DNA from: a virus
Reading direction: 5' to 3' (one strand)
DNA: 64,000 bases
IMG/VR virus record: IMGVR_UViG_3300017963_000201
Coordinates: 1 to 64,000 of that record
Of the stretch, positions 32,116 through 45,534 are shown one piece after another. The notes beneath the pieces were generated by a model, which saw only the letters and a list, made by a program, of their open reading frames with translations, was not told the DNA's origin and made no database searches. The stretch's first letter is position 1. Each line of letters opens with the position of its first letter. The translations under genes and the position numbers were made by a program.

Positions 32116-32148
32116 GTACCCTCCAAAGTGTAGTCTCTGAAGGGTATA

Positions 32149-32330
32149 ATACAAGAATACTAAGAATCCCATTCGAGACTTAAACTATGCTAAAATTGGT
32201 TAACACAGCTGCTCGATTCCTGCTCAACCAAGAGTTTCGTCTTCCCTTTGATGGAAAGACCAGCGCTCTCAGGGCAGCAGGCTGTCACCGCGTAGGTCGC
32301 GGCCAATTGTTTCAAATTTTCTGCAGCGTT
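32149..32330 (-). ncRNA. Predicted TnpB omega/reRNA (scaffold overlapping tnpB 3' end, guide from phage flank ~GATTCTTAGTATTCTTGTAT)
   Basis: Inferred from the known TnpB architecture; the element 3' end reads ...GAGCAGGAA...GTCTCGAATGG, resembling IS607-type right ends; 5' boundary is approximate. Confidence 0.5.
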
Positions 32331-33392
32331 CTCATCCCGGTCGTGCTTTGTCCCGCACTCACAAAACCAGTGGCGTTCGCTGAGGCTAAGCGCGTCGTAG
32401 ACAAGACCACAGGTCGAACAAGTTTTGCTCGAAGCGAACCAGCGGTTTGCTCGAACGACCGTTGTACCGGCAAACTTAGCTTTGTAGTTGAGCTGCCGTC
32501 CGACTTCGGCCATCGCGGCGTCCATTATGGACTTAGCGAGACGGCGATTCGCTACCATTCCTCTGATGTTCAAGTCTTCAATGCCGATCCAACGGAAACG
32601 TCGGACCAACTGCGCAGTCAATTTGTGCGTCACGTTCTTACGTACGTTGGTGCTTCGTTCGTACAGCCGCTGGAGCTTTGTTCTCGTCTTTTGCCAGTTC
32701 TTCCCTCCTTTGTGTCGACGAGACAACTCTTTGTTCAACATCCGCTGACGCTTTTCTATTTGACGCAACGCTCTAGGTGCTTCGATACGTTCTCCGGTCG
32801 AAAGAACGGCAAGGTTTACGACGCCCAAATCTACTCCGACAGCTGCTTGGGTTTCACAGCGGTGGGGATAAGACCAGCGGGCTTCGTCGACCTTGACCTG
32901 TACCGATACATACCAGTGCCCTGCGTGCTTAGAGAAGCGTGCAGAAAGGATGTTGCCCGGAAAGCGCAACGCTTGCCGGGTTCTAATCCATCCAATCTTT
33001 GGCACTTTGATTCGGAGTGCGTCAAACTGTATTGCTCTTCCCTCAATGCTAAAAGCAGGTTTTGTCCGCTTTTTACTTTTGAAACGCGGGTAACCGGGCT
33101 TTTCTCCGATTTTTACGCGCCGAAAAAAGTGCTGAAAAGCGTTGTTCAAATCTTGCAGAGCGCTATTGGGTACCGCCCAGGGAAGTTCTTTGAGCCAAAA
33201 CAGGTCGCTTCGTTTGCGCGCATTAACTTCGCGATTAATGCTTTGCCAGTTGGGCTTGCCGCCCGCTTTATATACCTGCTGCCAGCGATCCAAACCGAGA
33301 TTGTAAACAAAACGCGCCGCACCAGCAAACCGTTCCAGCTGCGTCATTTGCACGTTGTTCGGGTCGAGCCGAATCCGCTGTCCCAAAATCAT
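32190..33392 (-). CDS. tnpB: TnpB RNA-guided endonuclease
   Basis: HTH_OrfB start (RIRLDPN...ARFVYN), YPRFKSKK, RuvC-I GVDLG, RuvC-II IEDLN, Zn finger CSTCG..CECG, RuvC-III DRDENAA; catalytic D-E-D intact. Confidence 0.97.
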   Translation of the reverse strand: MILGQRIRLDPNNVQMTQLERFAGAARFVYNLGLDRWQQVYKAGGKPNWQSINREVNARKRSDLFWLKELPWAVPNSALQDLNNAFQHFFRRVKIGEKPGYPRFKSKKRTKPAFSIEGRAIQFDALRIKVPKIGWIRTRQALRFPGNILSARFSKHAGHWYVSVQVKVDEARWSYPHRCETQAAVGVDLGVVNLAVLSTGERIEAPRALRQIEKRQRMLNKELSRRHKGGKNWQKTRTKLQRLYERSTNVRKNVTHKLTAQLVRRFRWIGIEDLNIRGMVANRRLAKSIMDAAMAEVGRQLNYKAKFAGTTVVRANRWFASSKTCSTCGLVYDALSLSERHWFCECGTKHDRDENAAENLKQLAATYAVTACCPESAGLSIKGKTKLLVEQESSSCVNQF

Positions 33393-33544
33393 TTGGCGTT
33401 CATTGCCTTTCGTACGATCCGCCGAAGAATTTCGGATATCGACACGTCGTTGCGTTTGGCTTCAAGTCGCAGCCACGCCAAAAGCGGCGGGTCAAAGGAC
33501 AGTTTGATACTCGGCATTCGTTGTAGCTTTTTCGGAGCAGGCAT
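33389..33544 (-). CDS. Ribbon-helix-helix (CopG-like) protein, 51 aa, ATGA-coupled to tnpB
   Basis: Below the ORF track cutoff; translates MPAPKKLQRMPSIKLSFDPPLLAWLRLEAKRNDVSISEILRRIVRKAMNAK. Confidence 0.75.
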   Translation of the reverse strand: MPAPKKLQRMPSIKLSFDPPLLAWLRLEAKRNDVSISEILRRIVRKAMNAK

Positions 33545-33551
33545 GGTGGAG

Positions 33552-33580
33552 AGTATAGCTACGCCCAACGATTACGTCAA
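33552..33580 (-). promoter_or_regulatory. sigma70 promoter for RHH-tnpB (probably leaderless mRNA)
   Basis: TTGACG-17 nt-TATACT, with ATG 7 nt downstream. Confidence 0.75.
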
Positions 33581-33620
33581 GAGGCAACTTGATGGCTGTC
33601 TAGTTAACAAAGGATACACC

Positions 33621-35692
33621 GTGGAAAATACAAGCGAATTAAAATTTCGTCGGAAAGGTTGAATGGGATTATTGCCCATATTGACGCAGGCAAGACCACC
33701 GTAACCGAAAGGTTTTTGTACTATACGGGCGTGACTCATCGCATGGGAGAGGTCCACGATGGACAGGCCGTCATGGACTGGATGCCCCAGGAACAAGAAC
33801 GTGGTATTACCATTACCTCGGCGGTCACCGTGCTGCCCTGGCGCAAACATGAAATCCACCTCATCGACACACCGGGGCACGTGGATTTTACCGTTGAAGT
33901 CGAACGCAGCTTGCGAGTCCTCGACGCAGCGGTTGTGGTCTTTTGTGCCGTGGGAGGAGTCGAGCCCCAATCAGAGACAGTATGGCGACAAGCAGATCGC
34001 TACCAGATCCCCAGATTGGCCTTTATCAACAAAATGGATCGTGTCGGGGCAGACTACGAAGGTTGTGTCGAGCAAATGGTCGACAAGCTGGGCTGCGTTC
34101 CCATGCCAATCCAGATTCCCCTGGGAAAAGAAGAAAACCTCCAGGGAGTGGTCGATCTAGTCAGAATGGAGATATTGCGCTGGCATACTGAAGACCTTGG
34201 GGCCACCTTCGACCGCTCACCCCTCAATGACGACCCTGAAATTGCCGCCCTAGCCGCTCCGTGGAGAGACCGGCTGCTCGAGATTCTGGCGGATGACGAC
34301 GACCAAATCGCCGAGGCTTATCTTGCCGGAGATACCATTGCCACTGAAAAAATCATGGCCGCGGTTCGCAAGCAGTGCCTGTCCAACCGTGCGGTGCCGG
34401 TTTTGTGTGGCTCGGCCCTCAAGAACAAGGGAGTTCAACCCTTGCTCGATGCAGTCGTCGACTTTTTACCAGCGCCGGTGGAATTGCCTCCAGTCCAGGG
34501 GACCCATCCCCAGACCAAAGAACCGGTCGTCATGGAGCGTAATCGCAACGAGCCCTTTTCCGGCGTCGCGTTCAAGGTCCAACTCTGGGACGGACGCAAA
34601 CACACGTATCTACGCATCTACTCGGGCTCGCTGAGCGCCACTGACACGGTCTACAACCCGAACAAGGACGCCAATGAAAAAATAGCTCGCCTTCTGAAGC
34701 TGCACGCCGACAAGAAGTCCCGTATCCAACGGGCTGACGCAGGCGACATCGTGGGCGTCGTGGGGCTGAAAAAGGCGACAACCGGAGACACCCTGTGCAC
34801 CCGAGCCCATCCGGTCGTCTTTGGGCAAATGACGTTCATGACCCCAGTCATCTCCATGGCGGTGGAGGCCAAAACCAGCCGAGTGGAAGAAAAACTCAAA
34901 GAGGTCCTGGTAAAAATGGTCGAAGAAGACCCCACCTTTACCGTGACCCAGGATCCCGACACTGGGCAAACCATTTTGAGCGGTATGGGCGAGCTCCACC
35001 TCGAAATCATCTGTGATCGTCTGGAGCGAGAATTCCACGTTCCGGTCAATGTCGGCAAACCCCAGGTTGTCTATCGCGAGACCTTGTCACAGGCAACCGA
35101 AGCCTCGGAACGCTTCGAGAGAAAATTCGACGAGACAGCCAAGGCCAAAAACATGTTCGCTGGGATAACCCTCAAGGCCGAACCTCTAGGTCGGGGACTC
35201 GGTCTAAAGTTCACAAACACCATCGTCCGCCCCCCGGAAGCACCCCCGATTCCCGCAGACTTCATCCAGGCCGCAGAAGAAGGGGTCCGGGAGGCTGCTG
35301 GCGCCGGGCCGCAGTCAGGCTATCCCATCACCGACATAGCGGTCTCGCTCAAGGGCATCGAGTTCAAAGAGGGTGACACAACGCCCATTGCGGTTCACAT
35401 CGCCGCAGCGGGTGCTTTTCGGCGTGCCTGCGAAAAAGCCGGAACGGAGCTACTGCTTCCCATAATGGCGTTGGAAGCAGTGACGCCCGAAGATTTCACG
35501 GGGGCCGTTATTGGAGACATCAACTCACGGGGAGGCAAGGTCGAAGAGCTCGAGAAGAAAGCATCCAGGACCATCATCCGGGCCCAGGTTCCGATGACCA
35601 AGATGTTCGGCTATGCCACCAGCCTCCGTTCATTGACTGAAGGCCGGGGTACTTTTAGCATGCGGTTTCTCAAGTTTGATAGGGCGTCCTGA
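33621..35692 (+). pseudogene. fusA: Elongation factor G, host-like, 5' end split: GTG 33621 gives [13 protein letters not shown]-stop, and the body continues in the -1 frame from TTG 33659
   Basis: AAAGGA RBS before GTG 33621; body has [57 protein letters not shown]; conserved RNIG is replaced by CGG AAAGGTTGAAT GGG. Could still be expressed via the TTGA stop/start overlap. Confidence 0.85.
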
Positions 35693-35698
35693 CCGGGT

Positions 35699-35890
35699 AT
35701 GAGCAACCAGCCCCCAACCAGTAGCGAATCACGGTGTTACAGGGGCCTGGTCTTGTGGCTTGTGTTGGTCGCAGCCGGAATCCTAGGCATGCTTTTGGGG
35801 TTTTGGATAGGACGTCGGGCCGATTCGTCTTACCTCGAGCTTCAGGTTGTCTCCGATCGTATAAATACCAGACAAAAACGTCAAGAGTAA
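35699..35890 (+). pseudogene. 5' fragment of a single-pass membrane protein gene, truncated at the island border
   Basis: TM segment GLVLWLVLVAAGILGMLLGFWIG; GC-rich codons change abruptly to AT-rich sequence near 35855. Confidence 0.55.
35856..35884 (-). promoter_or_regulatory. sigma70 promoter firing leftward into the GC-rich island (antisense to fusA)
   Basis: TTGACG-17 nt-TACGAT. Confidence 0.65.
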
Positions 35891-37853: not shown

Positions 37854-38677
37854 AACTTGTCCTAGCAGACTGCTTCGATCTTTGTAAGCGTATCCCTTCT
37901 GGTAAGATTAATCTTGTCTATGTGGATCCCCCATTCAACACAGGTAAAAAACAAAAAGGAGGGCGTATAAAGTTTACATCCTCTAACTCTGGATCTCGAA
38001 AAGGTTATGCTGGTAGAAAATACAAAACTGAAAGCATACCTGGCCCCTCATACCAAGACATCTACAAAGATTATATTTCTTATTGGGGGCCGAGATTTTT
38101 AGAGATGGCTCGAATATTAACTTCTAACGGATCTTTGTTTATTCATATTGATTACCGCCAAGCCCCTTACGTGCGGGTATTTCTTGATCAGCATCTTTAT
38201 TTTATGAACGAAATAATTTGGGCATACGACTATGGAGCACGCACAAAAAAGAGGTGGCCAGCAAAACACGATAATATACTTTGGTACGTAAAGGATCCTG
38301 CAAATTATGTTTTTAACTATTCGAAAATTGATCGGATACCTTACTTGGCTCCCAGCCTTCAAACTCCAGAACGAAGACAATTGGGAAAAACACCGACTAC
38401 CGTTTGGTGGGGTACCATTGTCCCAACCAATTCAAAAGAACGCACAGGATACCCAACCCAAAAACCAAGATGGCTACTAGAGCGGATTTTGAAGGTGCAT
38501 ACAAAGCCCCGAGATTGGGTCTGTGACCCTTGTGCTGGTTCAGGTACCCTAGGGGCTGTAGCTAGTTCCCTAGACCGTAGGTGCCTTCTCGGGGACTCTA
38601 GCGAAGAAGCAATAGAGTGTATGCAGAAAAGACTCTCTCAGTACAGTCCCCAAATCATTAAAATAGGCAAAAAATAA
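37850..38677 (+). CDS. DNA N6-adenine/N4-cytosine methyltransferase (beta class)
   Basis: VDPPFNT, YPTQKP, DPCAGSGT. Confidence 0.93.
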   Translation: MKLVLADCFDLCKRIPSGKINLVYVDPPFNTGKKQKGGRIKFTSSNSGSRKGYAGRKYKTESIPGPSYQDIYKDYISYWGPRFLEMARILTSNGSLFIHIDYRQAPYVRVFLDQHLYFMNEIIWAYDYGARTKKRWPAKHDNILWYVKDPANYVFNYSKIDRIPYLAPSLQTPERRQLGKTPTTVWWGTIVPTNSKERTGYPTQKPRWLLERILKVHTKPRDWVCDPCAGSGTLGAVASSLDRRCLLGDSSEEAIECMQKRLSQYSPQIIKIGKK

Positions 38678-38681
38678 AGGA

Positions 38682-38711
38682 TTGACATCTGTAACGCAAT
38701 AGTGTTACACT
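38682..38711 (+). promoter_or_regulatory. sigma70 promoter with overlapping palindromic operator
   Basis: TTGACA-18 nt-TACACT; TGTAAC (38690) / GTTACA (38704) inverted repeat. Confidence 0.7.
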
Positions 38712-38728
38712 CGCATTAGGAGGACGGT

Positions 38729-38935
38729 ATGCTACACAACACTTCAATAAGGCTATCGAAGCAAGAAAAAAAATGGCTTGCTTCGTTTGGGAGACCAGTT
38801 GGGGAGCAAATCAGGATACACAATAGGCTTGTGCGAAAGTTGTATGCCCTGGCCGAAAAAAACAAGACGATTACCTTAGCAGAAGCTCTATCAATATTAG
38901 ATAGCGATCCACTTGAGGAGTCTGATGCAGAATAA
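38729..38935 (+). CDS. Small RHH-like DNA-binding protein
   Basis: TSIRLSKQEKKWL...PVGEQIR beta-alpha-alpha pattern; AGGAGG RBS. Confidence 0.55.
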   Translation: MLHNTSIRLSKQEKKWLASFGRPVGEQIRIHNRLVRKLYALAEKNKTITLAEALSILDSDPLEESDAE

Positions 38936-39899
38936 GTACGAAATTATCCGAGAGCTGTTCAAAGAATATAGCTTGCTAAACTACCCACTAGCAAGCTACG
39001 ACGAGTTTATTCAACGAATAATGCCCGAAAGGTGCTTCAAGCTACTCTACGCGGCGACTCAAAAAATGGGCTACAGCCAAGCTGATTTTGTCGCAATGCC
39101 CCAACTAATGTACACGGTTTGGGTAACTGAAAAAACAGGTCGTCCTGTTTTTGAAGTCCGTCCCGATATTATGGAAGCCTTACGGGATACGGACATTCCA
39201 GACTTTCCTTTGGAAGATCTAAAACTACCATTCGAAGGAATAATATTAAAGATCGATCAAGACACTTTTCATGGGCCTGCAGCTAACACGGGAGTTTTGT
39301 ACGTAACCCAAGTAGACTCTGATCGCTTTCGTGTCGTCTTTGATATTAACGACGAAGATACACATTTTATGAACCTTACCACAGATGGGTGCCATACTCT
39401 TAAACAATCAATTGAGAAATCGACACAGGCCACAAAAGAGATCCCCGAGCATATTCTTAAGCAATACGAAGAGTCACGAATCTACTTTGATTACTATGAC
39501 TCTGATGTTTTTCGCTTTGTAATTAATCTTGTTTTGTACATTACAAGTCCAGATAGCGATGTGAAGCAAGACAAAACCAAGATACATGCTTTACATCAAA
39601 AGTTACAAGCGACAAAAAAGAAAAACAAAAGAGAAATTATTCTAAAGCAACTTAGAAAAGCTAAAGACCACAAAAGATATATCGTAGGTGCAAATACTAA
39701 ACTTACGAAAGAGTACAAGGCATCGCTGACTGATGCCGGAAAAAAGTGGGCACTCACTCACAGATTCAAAGTACGGGGACACTTCAGAAAGCAAGCCTGT
39801 GGTAAAGGTTATCAAGACCACAAGCGCATTTGGGTTTCTCCGTATTGGAAAGGTCCTACCTACGCAGAAATGCTAGGTATGAATTACGTGGTAACATGA
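38925..39899 (+). CDS. Conserved-type phage hypothetical protein (VRGHFR.Q.CG motif)
   Basis: C-terminal KVRGHFRKQACG...RIWVSPYWKG. Confidence 0.65.
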   Translation: MQNKYEIIRELFKEYSLLNYPLASYDEFIQRIMPERCFKLLYAATQKMGYSQADFVAMPQLMYTVWVTEKTGRPVFEVRPDIMEALRDTDIPDFPLEDLKLPFEGIILKIDQDTFHGPAANTGVLYVTQVDSDRFRVVFDINDEDTHFMNLTTDGCHTLKQSIEKSTQATKEIPEHILKQYEESRIYFDYYDSDVFRFVINLVLYITSPDSDVKQDKTKIHALHQKLQATKKKNKREIILKQLRKAKDHKRYIVGANTKLTKEYKASLTDAGKKWALTHRFKVRGHFRKQACGKGYQDHKRIWVSPYWKGPTYAEMLGMNYVVT

Positions 39900-40219
39900 C
39901 AGATAGAAAAAAAGGCATCGAAAATATTTTAATCTTCCTAACAAACAGCGTACCTAAAAAGTATAAAAAGTATATCGGGATTAGCATAGAACCCGCACAG
40001 TTAATAACGGATATTATAACTATTGGATCCGAGTTTGCCATACAAATGATCTATGTTTTGCATCGTATGAGTGCTTCTAATACTGCAGCATCCCAAGAGT
40101 TTTTCAATATGCTAATCGTAAAATTAATCTATCGAGCAAACGAAGAAGGTTTTCTAGCAGAAAAACTAAAAAAACAGCTAGAAGGTTGGATCATACCCGA
40201 AAACGCTTTACTTAACTAG
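39896..40219 (+). CDS. Hypothetical protein
   Basis: ATGA-coupled to the upstream gene. Confidence 0.55.
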   Translation: MTDRKKGIENILIFLTNSVPKKYKKYIGISIEPAQLITDIITIGSEFAIQMIYVLHRMSASNTAASQEFFNMLIVKLIYRANEEGFLAEKLKKQLEGWIIPENALLN

Positions 40220-40238
40220 GAATCAAATAGGAATCAAA

Positions 40239-42113
40239 ATGGATATCGAAAAATTAGCTAAGAAACTAAAGAAAGCCCAAGACGCTTATTACAATAAGTC
40301 ACCGATACTAACCGATTCTGAATACGACAGACTTTATCTGACTTTGAAAGAATGGGATCCAAATCATCCCGTCCTAAAGAACGTAGGGGCTCCACCAAGT
40401 AACCATTTAAAAAAAGTCAAACACACTATCCCAATGGGTAGCCTGAATAACGTATTTACCACGGAGGAGTTTCTATCTTGGGCAAGAAAAACCAAAGCCG
40501 AGTTTTTTGTCATCCAGGAAAAACTAGATGGGATTTCTATCGAGTTAGAATATAAAAATGGGTGTCTCTTGCAAGCATCTACTCGTGGTGATGGTCGGGT
40601 AGGCGAAGACATTACGTTTAATGTCCGGAAAATGAAAAACGTTGTGCATCGGTTCAAAAAACCGTTCACGGGTACTTTACGCGGAGAAATTATTTGTCGC
40701 AATTACGAATTCAATGAATACTTAGCAGAGAATTATGCTAATCCTCGCAATGCAGCATCCGGTATCTCAAGAAGAAAAGATGGTTGGTATTCAGAACATC
40801 TTACCATTCTTTATTTTGATGTCTTCTCAGAGTTAGTACCACCCGTTAAAGAATCCCAAAAATTGTATTTTATCGAAGATACTCTAAATCTTTCTACAGT
40901 ACCTTCTAAAATAGTCCGGATAGACAATGCGGTCGAGTGGTATAATTGGTATTTAGATACTGGAAGAGCGGGCCTCAATTATATGATCGATGGCCTAGTT
41001 ATCAAAGTTAATAGACTGTCCATCCAAGAAAGTTTAGGTACAGTAAATAATCGACCAAAAGGTCAGATAGCTTGGAAGTTCCCTGCAGCGGTAAAGACTA
41101 CGGACGTTACCGAGATTCGTTGGGAGGTAGGCAGAACGGGGCGTATAACGCCTGTGGCGCATTTAGAGCCCATAGAGGTAGGTGGGGTTACCATCTCAAA
41201 AGCAACGCTCCACAACGTATCTAACGCCATAAATCTTGGGGTAGTAGAAAAATGCACTGTGATAGTTAGTCGAGCAGGGGATGTTATTCCTCAGATAGAC
41301 AGAGTTGTCACAAAAGTGGGCGACTATGTTTTAGACGTTCCACTGCATTGTCCTGTTTGTGGTGCCAAGACTAAATTTGAAGGTGAGTTTTTGATCTGCC
41401 ATAATAATGCATGCCCAGCTCGGCATAAAGGCGACATTGACAAATGGATCGAAATTACGCAGATCGATCTGGCCGGAAAGAGCTTTATTGAAGATGTTTA
41501 TCGATCACAACTAGTAAAGGACCCATCTGATCTCTATACTTTGACAGTCCATGATCTATTAAAGATCCCGGGGTACAAAAAAACTAAGGCAAGTAAAATC
41601 TTAAAAAATATCCAGGACAAAAAAATACTCAGGTTAGAAGTGTTCATGGCAGGGCTAAATATCCCCAACGCTTCTTTATCTACGTTCCAAGAGCTTGTAG
41701 AAAATGGCTTTGACACCTTAGAAAAAATAAGAAAAGCCACGGTAAAAAAATTGTCTAGGGTACATTCCATTGGGGAAATCACAGCCGAGAGTATTGCTGT
41801 GGGTATCGAAAATAAAGATGCAATCATTGATAAGTTATTAAAGAATGGGGTTATTATAGAAGAGTGCAAACAAGGGGAGCTTAGTGGGATGTCCTTTTGT
41901 TTTACCGGATCACTTTCTGAGATGAAAAGAGGTGACGCACAAAACTTAGTCAAAGAAAAAGGTGGAATAGTAAAAAGCGGGGTATCAAAAGGGCTAACAT
42001 ACTTAGTCCAAGCTTTCCCTGATTCGCAATCAAGCAAAAGTCAAAAAGCTAAAAAATACGGAACCAAGATTATTAACGAGCATGAATTTTACAAAATAGT
42101 GGGTTTGCTGTAA
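40239..42113 (+). CDS. ligA: NAD-dependent DNA ligase
   Basis: EKLDGIS, TRGDGRVGEDIT, NPRNAA, DGLVIKV, SRAGDVIP, Zn finger, BRCT FCFTGSL. Confidence 0.97.
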   Translation: MDIEKLAKKLKKAQDAYYNKSPILTDSEYDRLYLTLKEWDPNHPVLKNVGAPPSNHLKKVKHTIPMGSLNNVFTTEEFLSWARKTKAEFFVIQEKLDGISIELEYKNGCLLQASTRGDGRVGEDITFNVRKMKNVVHRFKKPFTGTLRGEIICRNYEFNEYLAENYANPRNAASGISRRKDGWYSEHLTILYFDVFSELVPPVKESQKLYFIEDTLNLSTVPSKIVRIDNAVEWYNWYLDTGRAGLNYMIDGLVIKVNRLSIQESLGTVNNRPKGQIAWKFPAAVKTTDVTEIRWEVGRTGRITPVAHLEPIEVGGVTISKATLHNVSNAINLGVVEKCTVIVSRAGDVIPQIDRVVTKVGDYVLDVPLHCPVCGAKTKFEGEFLICHNNACPARHKGDIDKWIEITQIDLAGKSFIEDVYRSQLVKDPSDLYTLTVHDLLKIPGYKKTKASKILKNIQDKKILRLEVFMAGLNIPNASLSTFQELVENGFDTLEKIRKATVKKLSRVHSIGEITAESIAVGIENKDAIIDKLLKNGVIIEECKQGELSGMSFCFTGSLSEMKRGDAQNLVKEKGGIVKSGVSKGLTYLVQAFPDSQSSKSQKAKKYGTKIINEHEFYKIVGLL

Positions 42114-43467: not shown

Positions 43468-44052
43468 ATGCGTATTGTCATCCCAGAAGAGAAAAATTAT
43501 ATTAAGCGTCTCAGGGAAAACTCAGTTAGAGGGGAATTAGAATTTGAAAACTTGTGTAAAATCTACGAAGAAATTTACGATCATAAGTATTGGGCATATT
43601 GGAATTATCCTAGTTTTAGAAGTTTCTGCATGGCAACCAATAAAGATTACGGTCTATACTCCTTTGGTATGGTCCGATTATATCTTCGTTGTGCTAAATT
43701 ATTGCCTGCCTATTACTTTCGGATTTATTCTAGAGGGCAATGCCTAGCCATTGCGCATGGAGCAACCGAAGATATTCGAGATGCTATTTCACAAGCCACA
43801 GATCAATTGCGGGTAAAAGATCTAACCCGCCTTGCCCTAAATCTAAATAAAGAGTATAAGAATGGAAATAAAAAATCGGAATTACCGCTTCGAATCCCAA
43901 GTCAGGGGGAATTCGAAGTTAATCTATTGACCAAAAAACCTAGATCATATCAAGGTTATTTATCATTAAATAATCAAAACTATATCGATATTACGTTCAA
44001 TCCACGAGCTAAAAAAGCATTTTATATAATACGTAGCTGTAATATTGATTAG
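43468..44052 (+). CDS. Hypothetical protein
   Basis: AAGGAG RBS, own promoter. Confidence 0.65.
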   Translation: MRIVIPEEKNYIKRLRENSVRGELEFENLCKIYEEIYDHKYWAYWNYPSFRSFCMATNKDYGLYSFGMVRLYLRCAKLLPAYYFRIYSRGQCLAIAHGATEDIRDAISQATDQLRVKDLTRLALNLNKEYKNGNKKSELPLRIPSQGEFEVNLLTKKPRSYQGYLSLNNQNYIDITFNPRAKKAFYIIRSCNID

Positions 44053-44100
44053 TAATTTCAATAATCTGTAAATTAAATTAATGCTAAGTTAATTTAGTGC

Positions 44101-44130
44101 TTGACTTAAAAACGTAATCTGTATTACAAT
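44101..44130 (+). promoter_or_regulatory. sigma70 promoter
   Basis: TTGACT-18 nt-TACAAT. Confidence 0.6.
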
Positions 44131-44172
44131 CGTGATAATTTCGTAATACTAAACTTTTGGAGGGACTGTACA

Positions 44173-44514
44173 ATGGCAAATACCAAAAAAGAAAAAACCA
44201 CAAAGAAGACGAAAAAAACCCCAACGGGAAAAAGGGGGAAACACTACACCCCCGCACAAAAACAAAAGATCCTTGCAAGGTATAGGGATCTGAGGACGCA
44301 CGGCGTTAAAGCCGTGGAAGCTGCCAAAAAAGTTGGCGTCTCGTATCTTACGATTCAAAAATGGGGAGCTAACGGGCTAGAAAAGGTGCGGACCAAGCCC
44401 CGCACAAATTTAAAACCAGACCCCTTTGAGGGAATCACGTTGAAAACCCCGGGAGGGTTTGTCATTGAAAACCTATCCCGACAAGATTTAATTGCGGTCC
44501 TTCAAGCTCTTTAA
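44173..44514 (+). CDS. HTH protein resembling IS66 accessory TnpA
   Basis: YTPAQKQKIL...AAKKVGVSYLTIQKW HTH plus C-terminal LKTPGGFVIENLS..DLIAVLQAL; GGAGG RBS. Confidence 0.6.
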   Translation: MANTKKEKTTKKTKKTPTGKRGKHYTPAQKQKILARYRDLRTHGVKAVEAAKKVGVSYLTIQKWGANGLEKVRTKPRTNLKPDPFEGITLKTPGGFVIENLSRQDLIAVLQAL

Positions 44515-44570
44515 TTTTTGTGTCAGATCCAACCGGGAAGAACGTCTTAAGAGGAAAAGGAGGGATTGAT

Positions 44571-44861
44571 ATGTTAGACAAAAACGACGTAGGTTTCGGA
44601 CGGCGGGCCATTCGGATGGCCGTAAAGATGGACCCCGATGGTGGCCCCCACGGGTTGGGCGTAAACCTGGGAGTGCCCCCTGAGGACAATTGGGGGTGGA
44701 GATGGTGGCTCCATCCGTCCGGGAGGGTGGTCCGAGTACGTCAGGGAGGGGATCTAGATCAGATCCCAGAAGACGTTGGTGAGATCACCTTGGACCTCCA
44801 GGGTGCGATTTTCCTGGCCCGGATGATCACGGGCGACTGGGGGGAGGATTACAATTTCTGA
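44571..44861 (+). CDS. Hypothetical protein (GC-rich)
   Basis: AGGAGG RBS before ATG 44571. Confidence 0.6.
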   Translation: MLDKNDVGFGRRAIRMAVKMDPDGGPHGLGVNLGVPPEDNWGWRWWLHPSGRVVRVRQGGDLDQIPEDVGEITLDLQGAIFLARMITGDWGEDYNF

Positions 44862-44885
44862 CCCTCTCCCCTCCCCCCTCCCCCC
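44862..44885 (-). repeat. C-rich tract (G-tracts on - strand, G-quadruplex-capable)
   Basis: + strand ccctctcccctcccccctcccccc. Confidence 0.6.
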
Positions 44886-44995
44886 GGAAAAAAGTTCCTA
44901 AACTTTTTTCCAATCCCGCAACTTATTCATACCATTTTCCCCTCAAAAAAACGACCAACATCAAATAAAATGAACACTTATGTGTAATACATCTG

Positions 44996-45011
44996 TGGTA
45001 CACATTTTGCA
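44996..45011 (+). promoter_or_regulatory. sigma54-type -24/-12 promoter
   Basis: TGGTACACATTTTGCA = GG-N10-GC, directly upstream of a run of small genes. Confidence 0.5.
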
Positions 45012-45027
45012 TAAGTTAATGATCGGT

Positions 45028-45534
45028 ATGCGTGATTCACTTAAAAAGGGGCTCAAAGGGGTAGCAGAAGTCACCAGGATTTCTGTCTCCCGATGGGGCT
45101 CAGAGTACTACCAGATCCGCTATCTAAAAGGCCCACGGAAGGGCCAGTCCTACCGCGTAAGGATTTCCAACCACAATACCACGGGAAGTTACCAGGGCCA
45201 ACAACAAGGCGTGTCTGGAGACTTCCGGACTGTGCCAGAAGCCGTAGAAGATCTTCTGCAGTGGAACACCGCAGAAGATATCGCTGACCAAGCCCAAGAA
45301 CTCAAAAAAGCACAGGAACAAAAGGATAGGTCAGAAGACCTAAATCGCAAAGCCGCTGAGATTCGACAATTAGTTTTTCGCGGCCTGGTTGACCGTGGGT
45401 ATTCAAAGCGGAAAGCGAAAAAAATTGTCGCTGACGCTACAGTTACGAAACAGGCTGCGGTAGCAGCCAAAGAGGGCATAAGTTTTGAAGTGGCTTCCGA
45501 AAAAATTTTGGAGGAAATATTCAATGTCAGCTAA
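45028..45534 (+). CDS. Hypothetical protein
   Basis: S.WGSEYY...VRISNH motif followed by coiled coil; start uncertain. Confidence 0.6.
   Translation: MRDSLKKGLKGVAEVTRISVSRWGSEYYQIRYLKGPRKGQSYRVRISNHNTTGSYQGQQQGVSGDFRTVPEAVEDLLQWNTAEDIADQAQELKKAQEQKDRSEDLNRKAAEIRQLVFRGLVDRGYSKRKAKKIVADATVTKQAAVAAKEGISFEVASEKILEEIFNVS

Follow-up and report, generated by a model that had tools for sequence, protein, structure and literature searches.

Prophages in which a TnpB-family gene travels with a host-gene copy were reportedly described by Wiegand et al. in 2024 as TldR and fliC pairs, where TldR is said to be nuclease-dead and to carry a fixed guide against a host gene. Imperfect inverted repeats lie near the ends of IS607 elements, which need a GG (PMC6188088; PMC10690162), and subunit rotation in the IS607 paired-end complex would give an inversion-type exchange (PMC6188088). 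Ribbon-helix-helix (RHH) repressors have been described in IS605 elements (bioRxiv 10.64898/2026.09.24.754181). Our literature search found no paper joining TnpB, inverted ends and RHH, and none on IS607 with start-codon insertion. Here we analyse a phage locus in which a tnpB element with an RHH gene adjoins a captured host translation-factor gene.

The window, the whole 64-kb stretch of DNA analysed, is the beginning of a 145-kb phage record (G000) of ~39% GC, and between 32.2 and 35.9 kb its GC content is ~54%. A second GC-rich stretch (~51%) of the record, at G000 83115-85100 (L388:1615-3600), encodes a 661-aa SNF2-like helicase ORF, judged by its motifs. As the preliminary description had noticed, the 10-mer GAATGGGATT occurs in inverted orientation at 33661-33670 (+) and 32174-32165 (-); the window holds no other exact copy. 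A third copy lies in unrelated DNA at position 101552 of G000, so the word alone is not rare and it is its position that needs explaining. With one mismatch allowed, the window has 8 matches against 6.9 expected. Both copies were thought to lie exactly on lesions, and they do coincide with the exact termini of a 1,502-bp element (Table 1). Because a given 10-mer recurs within a 3.7-kb insert with p ~0.007, and both copies fall exactly on element termini, we do not attribute their placement to chance. The 10-mer is best read as a terminal inverted repeat of 8 bases with two further bases from the flank; the ninth base would be set by the target (A at the left, T at the right) and the tenth would be coincidental.

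Table 1. Features of the insert and its borders in the 64-kb window
Feature	Position	Strand	Basis or remark
Phage right flank, predicted omega-RNA guide	32147..32166	-	Unbroken in sister allele L013 behind ...CTACA
Whole RHH-tnpB element, without transposase	32167..33668	-	1,502 bp
Right terminus GAATGGGA, 8/10 bases of first 10-mer copy	32167..32174	-	GGGA at 25/25 clade right ends; sister-allele identity starts at 32167
Predicted omega-RNA scaffold, overlapping tnpB 3' end	32167..32330	-	Conserved in relatives up to GGGA
tnpB, 400 aa	32190..33392	-	Pfam PF01385, PF07282, PF12323
51-aa RHH (Arc-like) gene, overlapping tnpB	33389..33544	-	PF01402 E 0.001, just under cut-off
Element left end (formerly 'scar' or apparent EF-G leader)	33545..33668	-	Ungapped alignment to five related insertions
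Element promoter, sigma70-like, 10/12	33552..33580	-	-35 box 88 nt from left junction
Left terminus, + strand reads GAATGGGA, 8/10 bases of second 10-mer copy	33661..33668	+	In register with relatives' CA|TNNN left junctions
Host fusA paralogue, without first ~14 codons	33669..35692	+	GC 57%; TIGR00484 799 bits
Small host membrane-protein ORF, 5' part, cut by far junction	35699..35855	+	GC 57% to 35855, then phage sequence
Far junction of insert	35844..35856	-	Weak left-end look-alike, 9/13 bases; from sister allele
Phage promoter of lost 252-aa gene	35856..35884	-	-10 box ends at junction; ORF 6 nt beyond in L013

The element encodes a TnpB whose RuvC residues (D188, E272 and D353) and zinc finger are intact, as judged from conserved columns. 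The RuvC D-E-D triad, the zinc finger and a conserved scaffold reaching the right end are all present, as predicted for an OMEGA TnpB nuclease. The scaffold folds with a z-score of -2.7 and has no match in Rfam. By analogy with IS605 and IS607 TnpB, the adjoining phage flank would act as the guide, and the target-adjacent motif (TAM) predicted from the left flanks is (C/T)CA or (C/T)CAT. Homologues of the RHH gene precede tnpB in five related loci (L007, L288, L307, L375 and L385). A search for longer or fused versions of the RHH protein found none, which is weak evidence. The distance between the -35 box and the left junction is constant at 88 nt in four of six cases (the window, L288, L375 and L385), and the length from left T to right A is 1,502 bp in the window, L375 and L385, and 1,504 bp, with the same end bases, in L288. 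Around the -35 boxes, 10 bases are common to the promoter of the element and the phage promoter of the far junction (33575-33584 and 35879-35888, minus strand).

We compared the ends with those of close TnpB relatives (57-80% identity) from viral contigs and assemblies. GGGA forms the right terminus in all 25 distinct right ends of the clade and is followed by T (14), A (8), C (1) or G (1), so the GA in the GG|GATT proposed earlier as a target is element sequence. The proposed GG|GATT preference is not borne out by the collected insertion sites, since GATT follows the right end in 1/24 cases, the window only, and the left flank ends in CA in 15/15 related insertions (with C or T before the CA in 14) and in GG in none. 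We thus read the element's target as CA^T/A from these flanks. Other target models were rejected: a GG core (left junctions are without GG), a fixed AT duplication (the bases after the A differ between left and right in 4/15) and variable left bases as a memory of earlier flanks (1 match in 9). A 5-base duplication, in which left end and right flank begin with the same five bases, occurs in L297 and L385 (2/15 insertions).

The left end of the window element aligns without gaps upstream of RHH-tnpB in the same five loci (L007, L288, L307, L375 and L385), none of which is inserted near fusA or at a site related to it. Identity is 17-22/30 inside the junction (bases 5-34) versus 5-9/30 just outside, L386 being left out of this comparison; against the native fusA 5' part it is 8/45. 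The GAAT that had been assigned to a scar in fusA is, by this alignment, the element's left end. The two 10-mer copies do mark junctions and are the ends of a tnpB element that adjoins fusA, but the supposed scar is an intact left end. A native leader peptide before fusA was rejected because the same short frame and stop position can be read from the left ends of L288, L307 and L375. The 41-aa cluster member P0241 and loci L015-L022 proved unrelated. Four overlapping pieces (G001-G004) represent a multi-copy phage in which the final ~40 bases of the right end recur, inverted and decayed, as the left ends; no empty alleles were found among these pieces. Left termini of the related phage copies are exactly TCCC in 1/9 and end in CC in 4/9.

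Rebuilt empty sites make sensible gene junctions, with TGATG overlaps in L297 and L375 and a ribosome site 8 bases before the ATG in L385. All six RHH-type relatives (L007, L288, L297, L307, L375 and L385) are cut inside the ATG of a long opposite-strand ORF, and in each of them the left end restores the A of the split ATG. The first five left-end bases copy the target in two of these six. In 5/6 the left end also carries a purine-rich, GGAG-like stretch resembling a ribosome site 10-14 bases upstream of the split ATG, so that operons stay readable. One element copy (G001:783-2174, L342) occupies a tRNA D-loop, and its rebuilt site restores AGCTCAGTTGG; the 3' half of this tRNA is ~200 bp away, with another tRNA between.

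A sister phage (L013/L014), found via a variant of the flanking glycosyltransferase, provides the ancestral allele. It matches the window at 99.4% from 32167 leftward and at 97.5-98.9% from 35856 rightward. Between these points lie 757 bp (37% GC) with a 252-aa ORF unassigned to any known family; in place of this segment the window has 3.69 kb (32168-35855), the element plus 2.2 kb of host DNA with the 5'-clipped fusA paralogue. Thus, the insert replaced a gene, and the phage empty site ATCGGGATT reconstructed in the preliminary description is absent from the sister, which has 757 other bases there. That ORF (L013:9198-9956, +) has no Pfam or NCBIfam match and opens the glycosyltransferase operon. 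At the right junction the sister sequence is CA^T; at the far junction it is GA^T, and this position is the last base of a promoter -10 box. The likeness of the far junction to the left end is equalled by 5/4,376 cargo positions and ranks 26/4,348 with a profile (top 0.1-0.6%), which may favour joint movement of element and host flank via a cryptic end, and is suggestive only. Differences between window and sister are dense at 38000-40999 and 44000-45060 (24-77 per kb versus 2-19 elsewhere), which suggests recombined tracts.

The fusA frame opens at a TTG at 33659 and runs for 677 aa with no stop within. Its product is closest to EF-G of Myxococcota/Deltaproteobacteria (65-74%), and these relatives lie outside the str operon. 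An insertion may have been tolerated because the gene is a stand-alone paralogue outside that operon. The left junction reads ATT inside the N-I-G-I-I-A-H motif, which places it ~14 codons into the gene, and its AA^T departs from the CA consensus of the other 15/15 left flanks. In two related fusA genes this point reads AAC ATC GGC ATC, a CA^T target on the sense strand, and GGC is the commonest Gly codon of the window fusA (16/50). The GGGATT formerly taken as native fusA holds from TT onward; the A is common to both partners and the GGG is assignable to neither, so that GGG (33665-33667) may stem from the repeat of the element, from a Gly codon of fusA or from an earlier right end. The in-frame TTG of the left end gives M-N-G-I-I-A-H, close to the native R-N-I-G-I-I-A-H (33659-33670), and an N-clipped EF-G could be made from this frame. 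A search for a + strand promoter upstream of it found none.

None of ~16 distinct elements sampled has a tnpA. Serine recombinases (PF00239) were not found in G000 or four related phage records, nor was a Y1 TnpA (PF01797) in G000, in related records or upstream in any locus. Resolvases and Y1, tyrosine and large serine recombinases were likewise absent from the phage records searched (9-85% complete), and no DDE gene was seen next to any element copy. The nearest TnpA-bearing relatives (42-45%) have a MerR-HTH plus serine recombinase. In a midpoint-rooted tree with no verified IS605 outgroup, 15 TnpA-less rows nest (100/100) among IS607-linked rows; 7/16 of the 'tnpA' labels were checked by Pfam. 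NCBIfam does not bear out this placement, as it scores the protein higher with IS200_TnpB (312 bits) than with IS607_TnpB (248), both under the cut-off.

We consider it probable that each 10-mer marks one terminus of a single RHH-tnpB element, non-autonomous, with short imperfect inverted ends and a CA^T/A target, which mobilised its host flank. Acting in trans, a transposase (most likely an IS607-type serine TnpA of the host) would first have inserted the element into a stand-alone fusA paralogue of the host, at the 5' end of that gene. The right end would later have joined a phage CA^T and the left-end look-alike 2.2 kb away a second phage site, with the clipped fusA carried as cargo and the phage gene between both sites lost. 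The guide would then be a fixed phage flank, and TnpB would cut sister genomes with the old allele, favouring the insert. In mixed infection TnpB could cut the sister allele and convert it, since the predicted guide matches that allele behind a CA. This order of events is inferred, and the host fusA allele was not found. This reading is favoured by the gapless left-end alignment, constant spacing and identical 1,502-bp length, by the uniform GGGA and CA (25/25 and 15/15) and the ~40-bp inverted ends of related phage copies, by the on-consensus CA^T of the sister at the right junction and the same structure in independent assemblies, and by the IS607-type TnpA relatives surrounding the TnpA-less clade and the intact catalytic residues. 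Against it stand the off-consensus AA|T at fusA, a perfect TCCC left terminus in 0/6 RHH-type relatives, a far junction whose left-end match is weak and whose phage side (GA^T) is off-consensus, the lack of a transposase in cis or in five phage records, and the higher IS200_TnpB score.

The preliminary description had proposed that a related element once sat in fusA. Its target preference and empty site fall away, and its 'remnant' is the conserved left end, although the last 4-8 bases may still derive from a right end. A modified form keeps the same element limits. A copy at GGCA^T on the sense strand of the host gene would have had its right end against the fusA 3' part; through the ATTC/GAAT that the two ends share, this right end would have recombined with the left end of a copy carried by the phage, leaving GGGA as a right-end remnant and joining fusA to the phage, and a second crossover would have closed the insert. 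We regard this as a tentative alternative, well short of probable. It would put both junctions on consensus (the related fusA codons and the sister phage site), agrees with the codon usage for Gly (GGC, 16/50) and could draw on subunit rotation in the IS607 complex (PMC6188088), but it needs two copies and an exchange within 4 bases. TCCC-like left termini also occur anyway in related phage copies (1/9 exact; 4/9 CC), and with target-copying left ends in 2/6 relatives the GGG may be a native Gly codon. Somewhat more doubtful is an element that entered the phage CA^T first, without an earlier insertion in fusA, and captured host DNA later by illegitimate or one-ended recombination at the promoter -10 box and its own left end. 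The contrast between an on-consensus phage right junction and an off-consensus fusA junction, outer junctions with only AT in common, and a clade found almost only in phage-like contigs are consistent with this order; yet capture would have to meet the left terminus to the base, and the left-end look-alike at the far junction is left without explanation.

The 10-mers had also suggested a switchable guide, in which the element inverts between them and the guide changes from phage flank to the G1 region of fusA. A trans-acting serine recombinase would occasionally invert the 1,502-bp element, and a minority of phages would have a guide matching the intact host fusA paralogue. A TnpB guide that could be flipped onto a host translation factor would be a striking finding, and we rate it very unlikely. 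The ends do form a perfect 8-bp inverted repeat in symmetric A/T context; after inversion the guide would correspond to fusA sequence, with a CA-type TAM if the codon there is GGC. However, searches of viral contigs and of 385 loci returned no inverted junction (the phage's own and near genomes may be left out of them, and contigs drop minor variants), and all assemblies show one orientation, including L001, a further run and, for relatives with ~40-bp repeats, four overlapping assemblies. CA lies on the left-end side in 15/15 insertions, no resolvase or Y1, tyrosine or large serine recombinase that could serve as invertase was found in the phage records searched, and the gene so targeted would stand alone, as a paralogue outside the str operon. 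A guide against fusA, even under the modified two-copy history, would be the ordinary flank-derived guide of a fusA insertion. A chance 10-mer or an assembly chimera is scarcely credible: the third copy of GAATGGGATT and the GC step from 39% to 54% at the insert are compatible with one, whereas the copies sit exactly on element termini and four contigs of separate assemblies contain the insert. The same EF-G in these contigs and the L001 match in the same orientation (99.99% over 22 kb) argue that the insert is no assembly artefact.

The locus is thus a clean natural case, with a known ancestral allele, in which a TnpB element that lacks a transposase brought 2.2 kb of host DNA into a phage, probably by the flank mobilisation favoured above. 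It leads to the prediction of a TnpB with a non-GG TAM and of drive against the sister allele. It also points to a TnpB clade, associated with phages, that matches neither IS607 nor IS605 in its ends and its target (CA^T/A): the element appears to work like a non-autonomous IS607/IS605-type OMEGA element and fails membership of either. Like the IS607 family (IS607, IS1535, ISC1926; CboIStron; ISFba1), to which its TnpA-bearing TnpB relatives belong by type (PMC6188088, PMC10690162, PMC11061315), it has an imperfect inverted repeat between its ends, no regular target duplication, a right-end omega-RNA and an intact RuvC. It differs in carrying an RHH gene in place of tnpA (in IS607 an HTH serine-recombinase TnpA lies upstream of tnpB), in targeting CA^T/A rather than GG, TGGG or AGGAG, and in having terminal repeats and a right end of GGGA. 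The IS607 hallmark of GG at both junctions and in the empty target is lacking, with no GG at the left junction or in the sister's empty site.

With the Arc-containing IS605-family elements (bioRxiv 10.64898/2026.09.24.754181) it shares a small RHH gene beside tnpB and a promoter that the RHH protein could repress. Unlike them it has no Y1 TnpA, its first left-end bases vary between close copies, and its shared sequence runs 14 bases beyond the position of their right end (TCAA/TTCAA). IS200/IS605 elements combine a fixed 4-5 base target with an invariant left end directly against it; in this clade (C/T)CA is fixed, but the four bases that follow differ between close copies, and the right end extends to GGGA. 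DDE-associated TnpB elements with symmetric ends (DDE-6/IS630 and others; PMC10691335) likewise have inverted terminal sequences around tnpB. Here, in contrast, the left terminal bases are the least conserved and there is no fixed target duplication; repeats are present but decayed at the very end, and duplication is irregular. The pairing of a TnpB-family gene with a phage-borne host-gene copy recalls prophage TldR and fliC. In contrast to TldR, the nuclease here is predicted to be intact, the guide would be a phage flank, and the host gene is clipped cargo in one phage strain.
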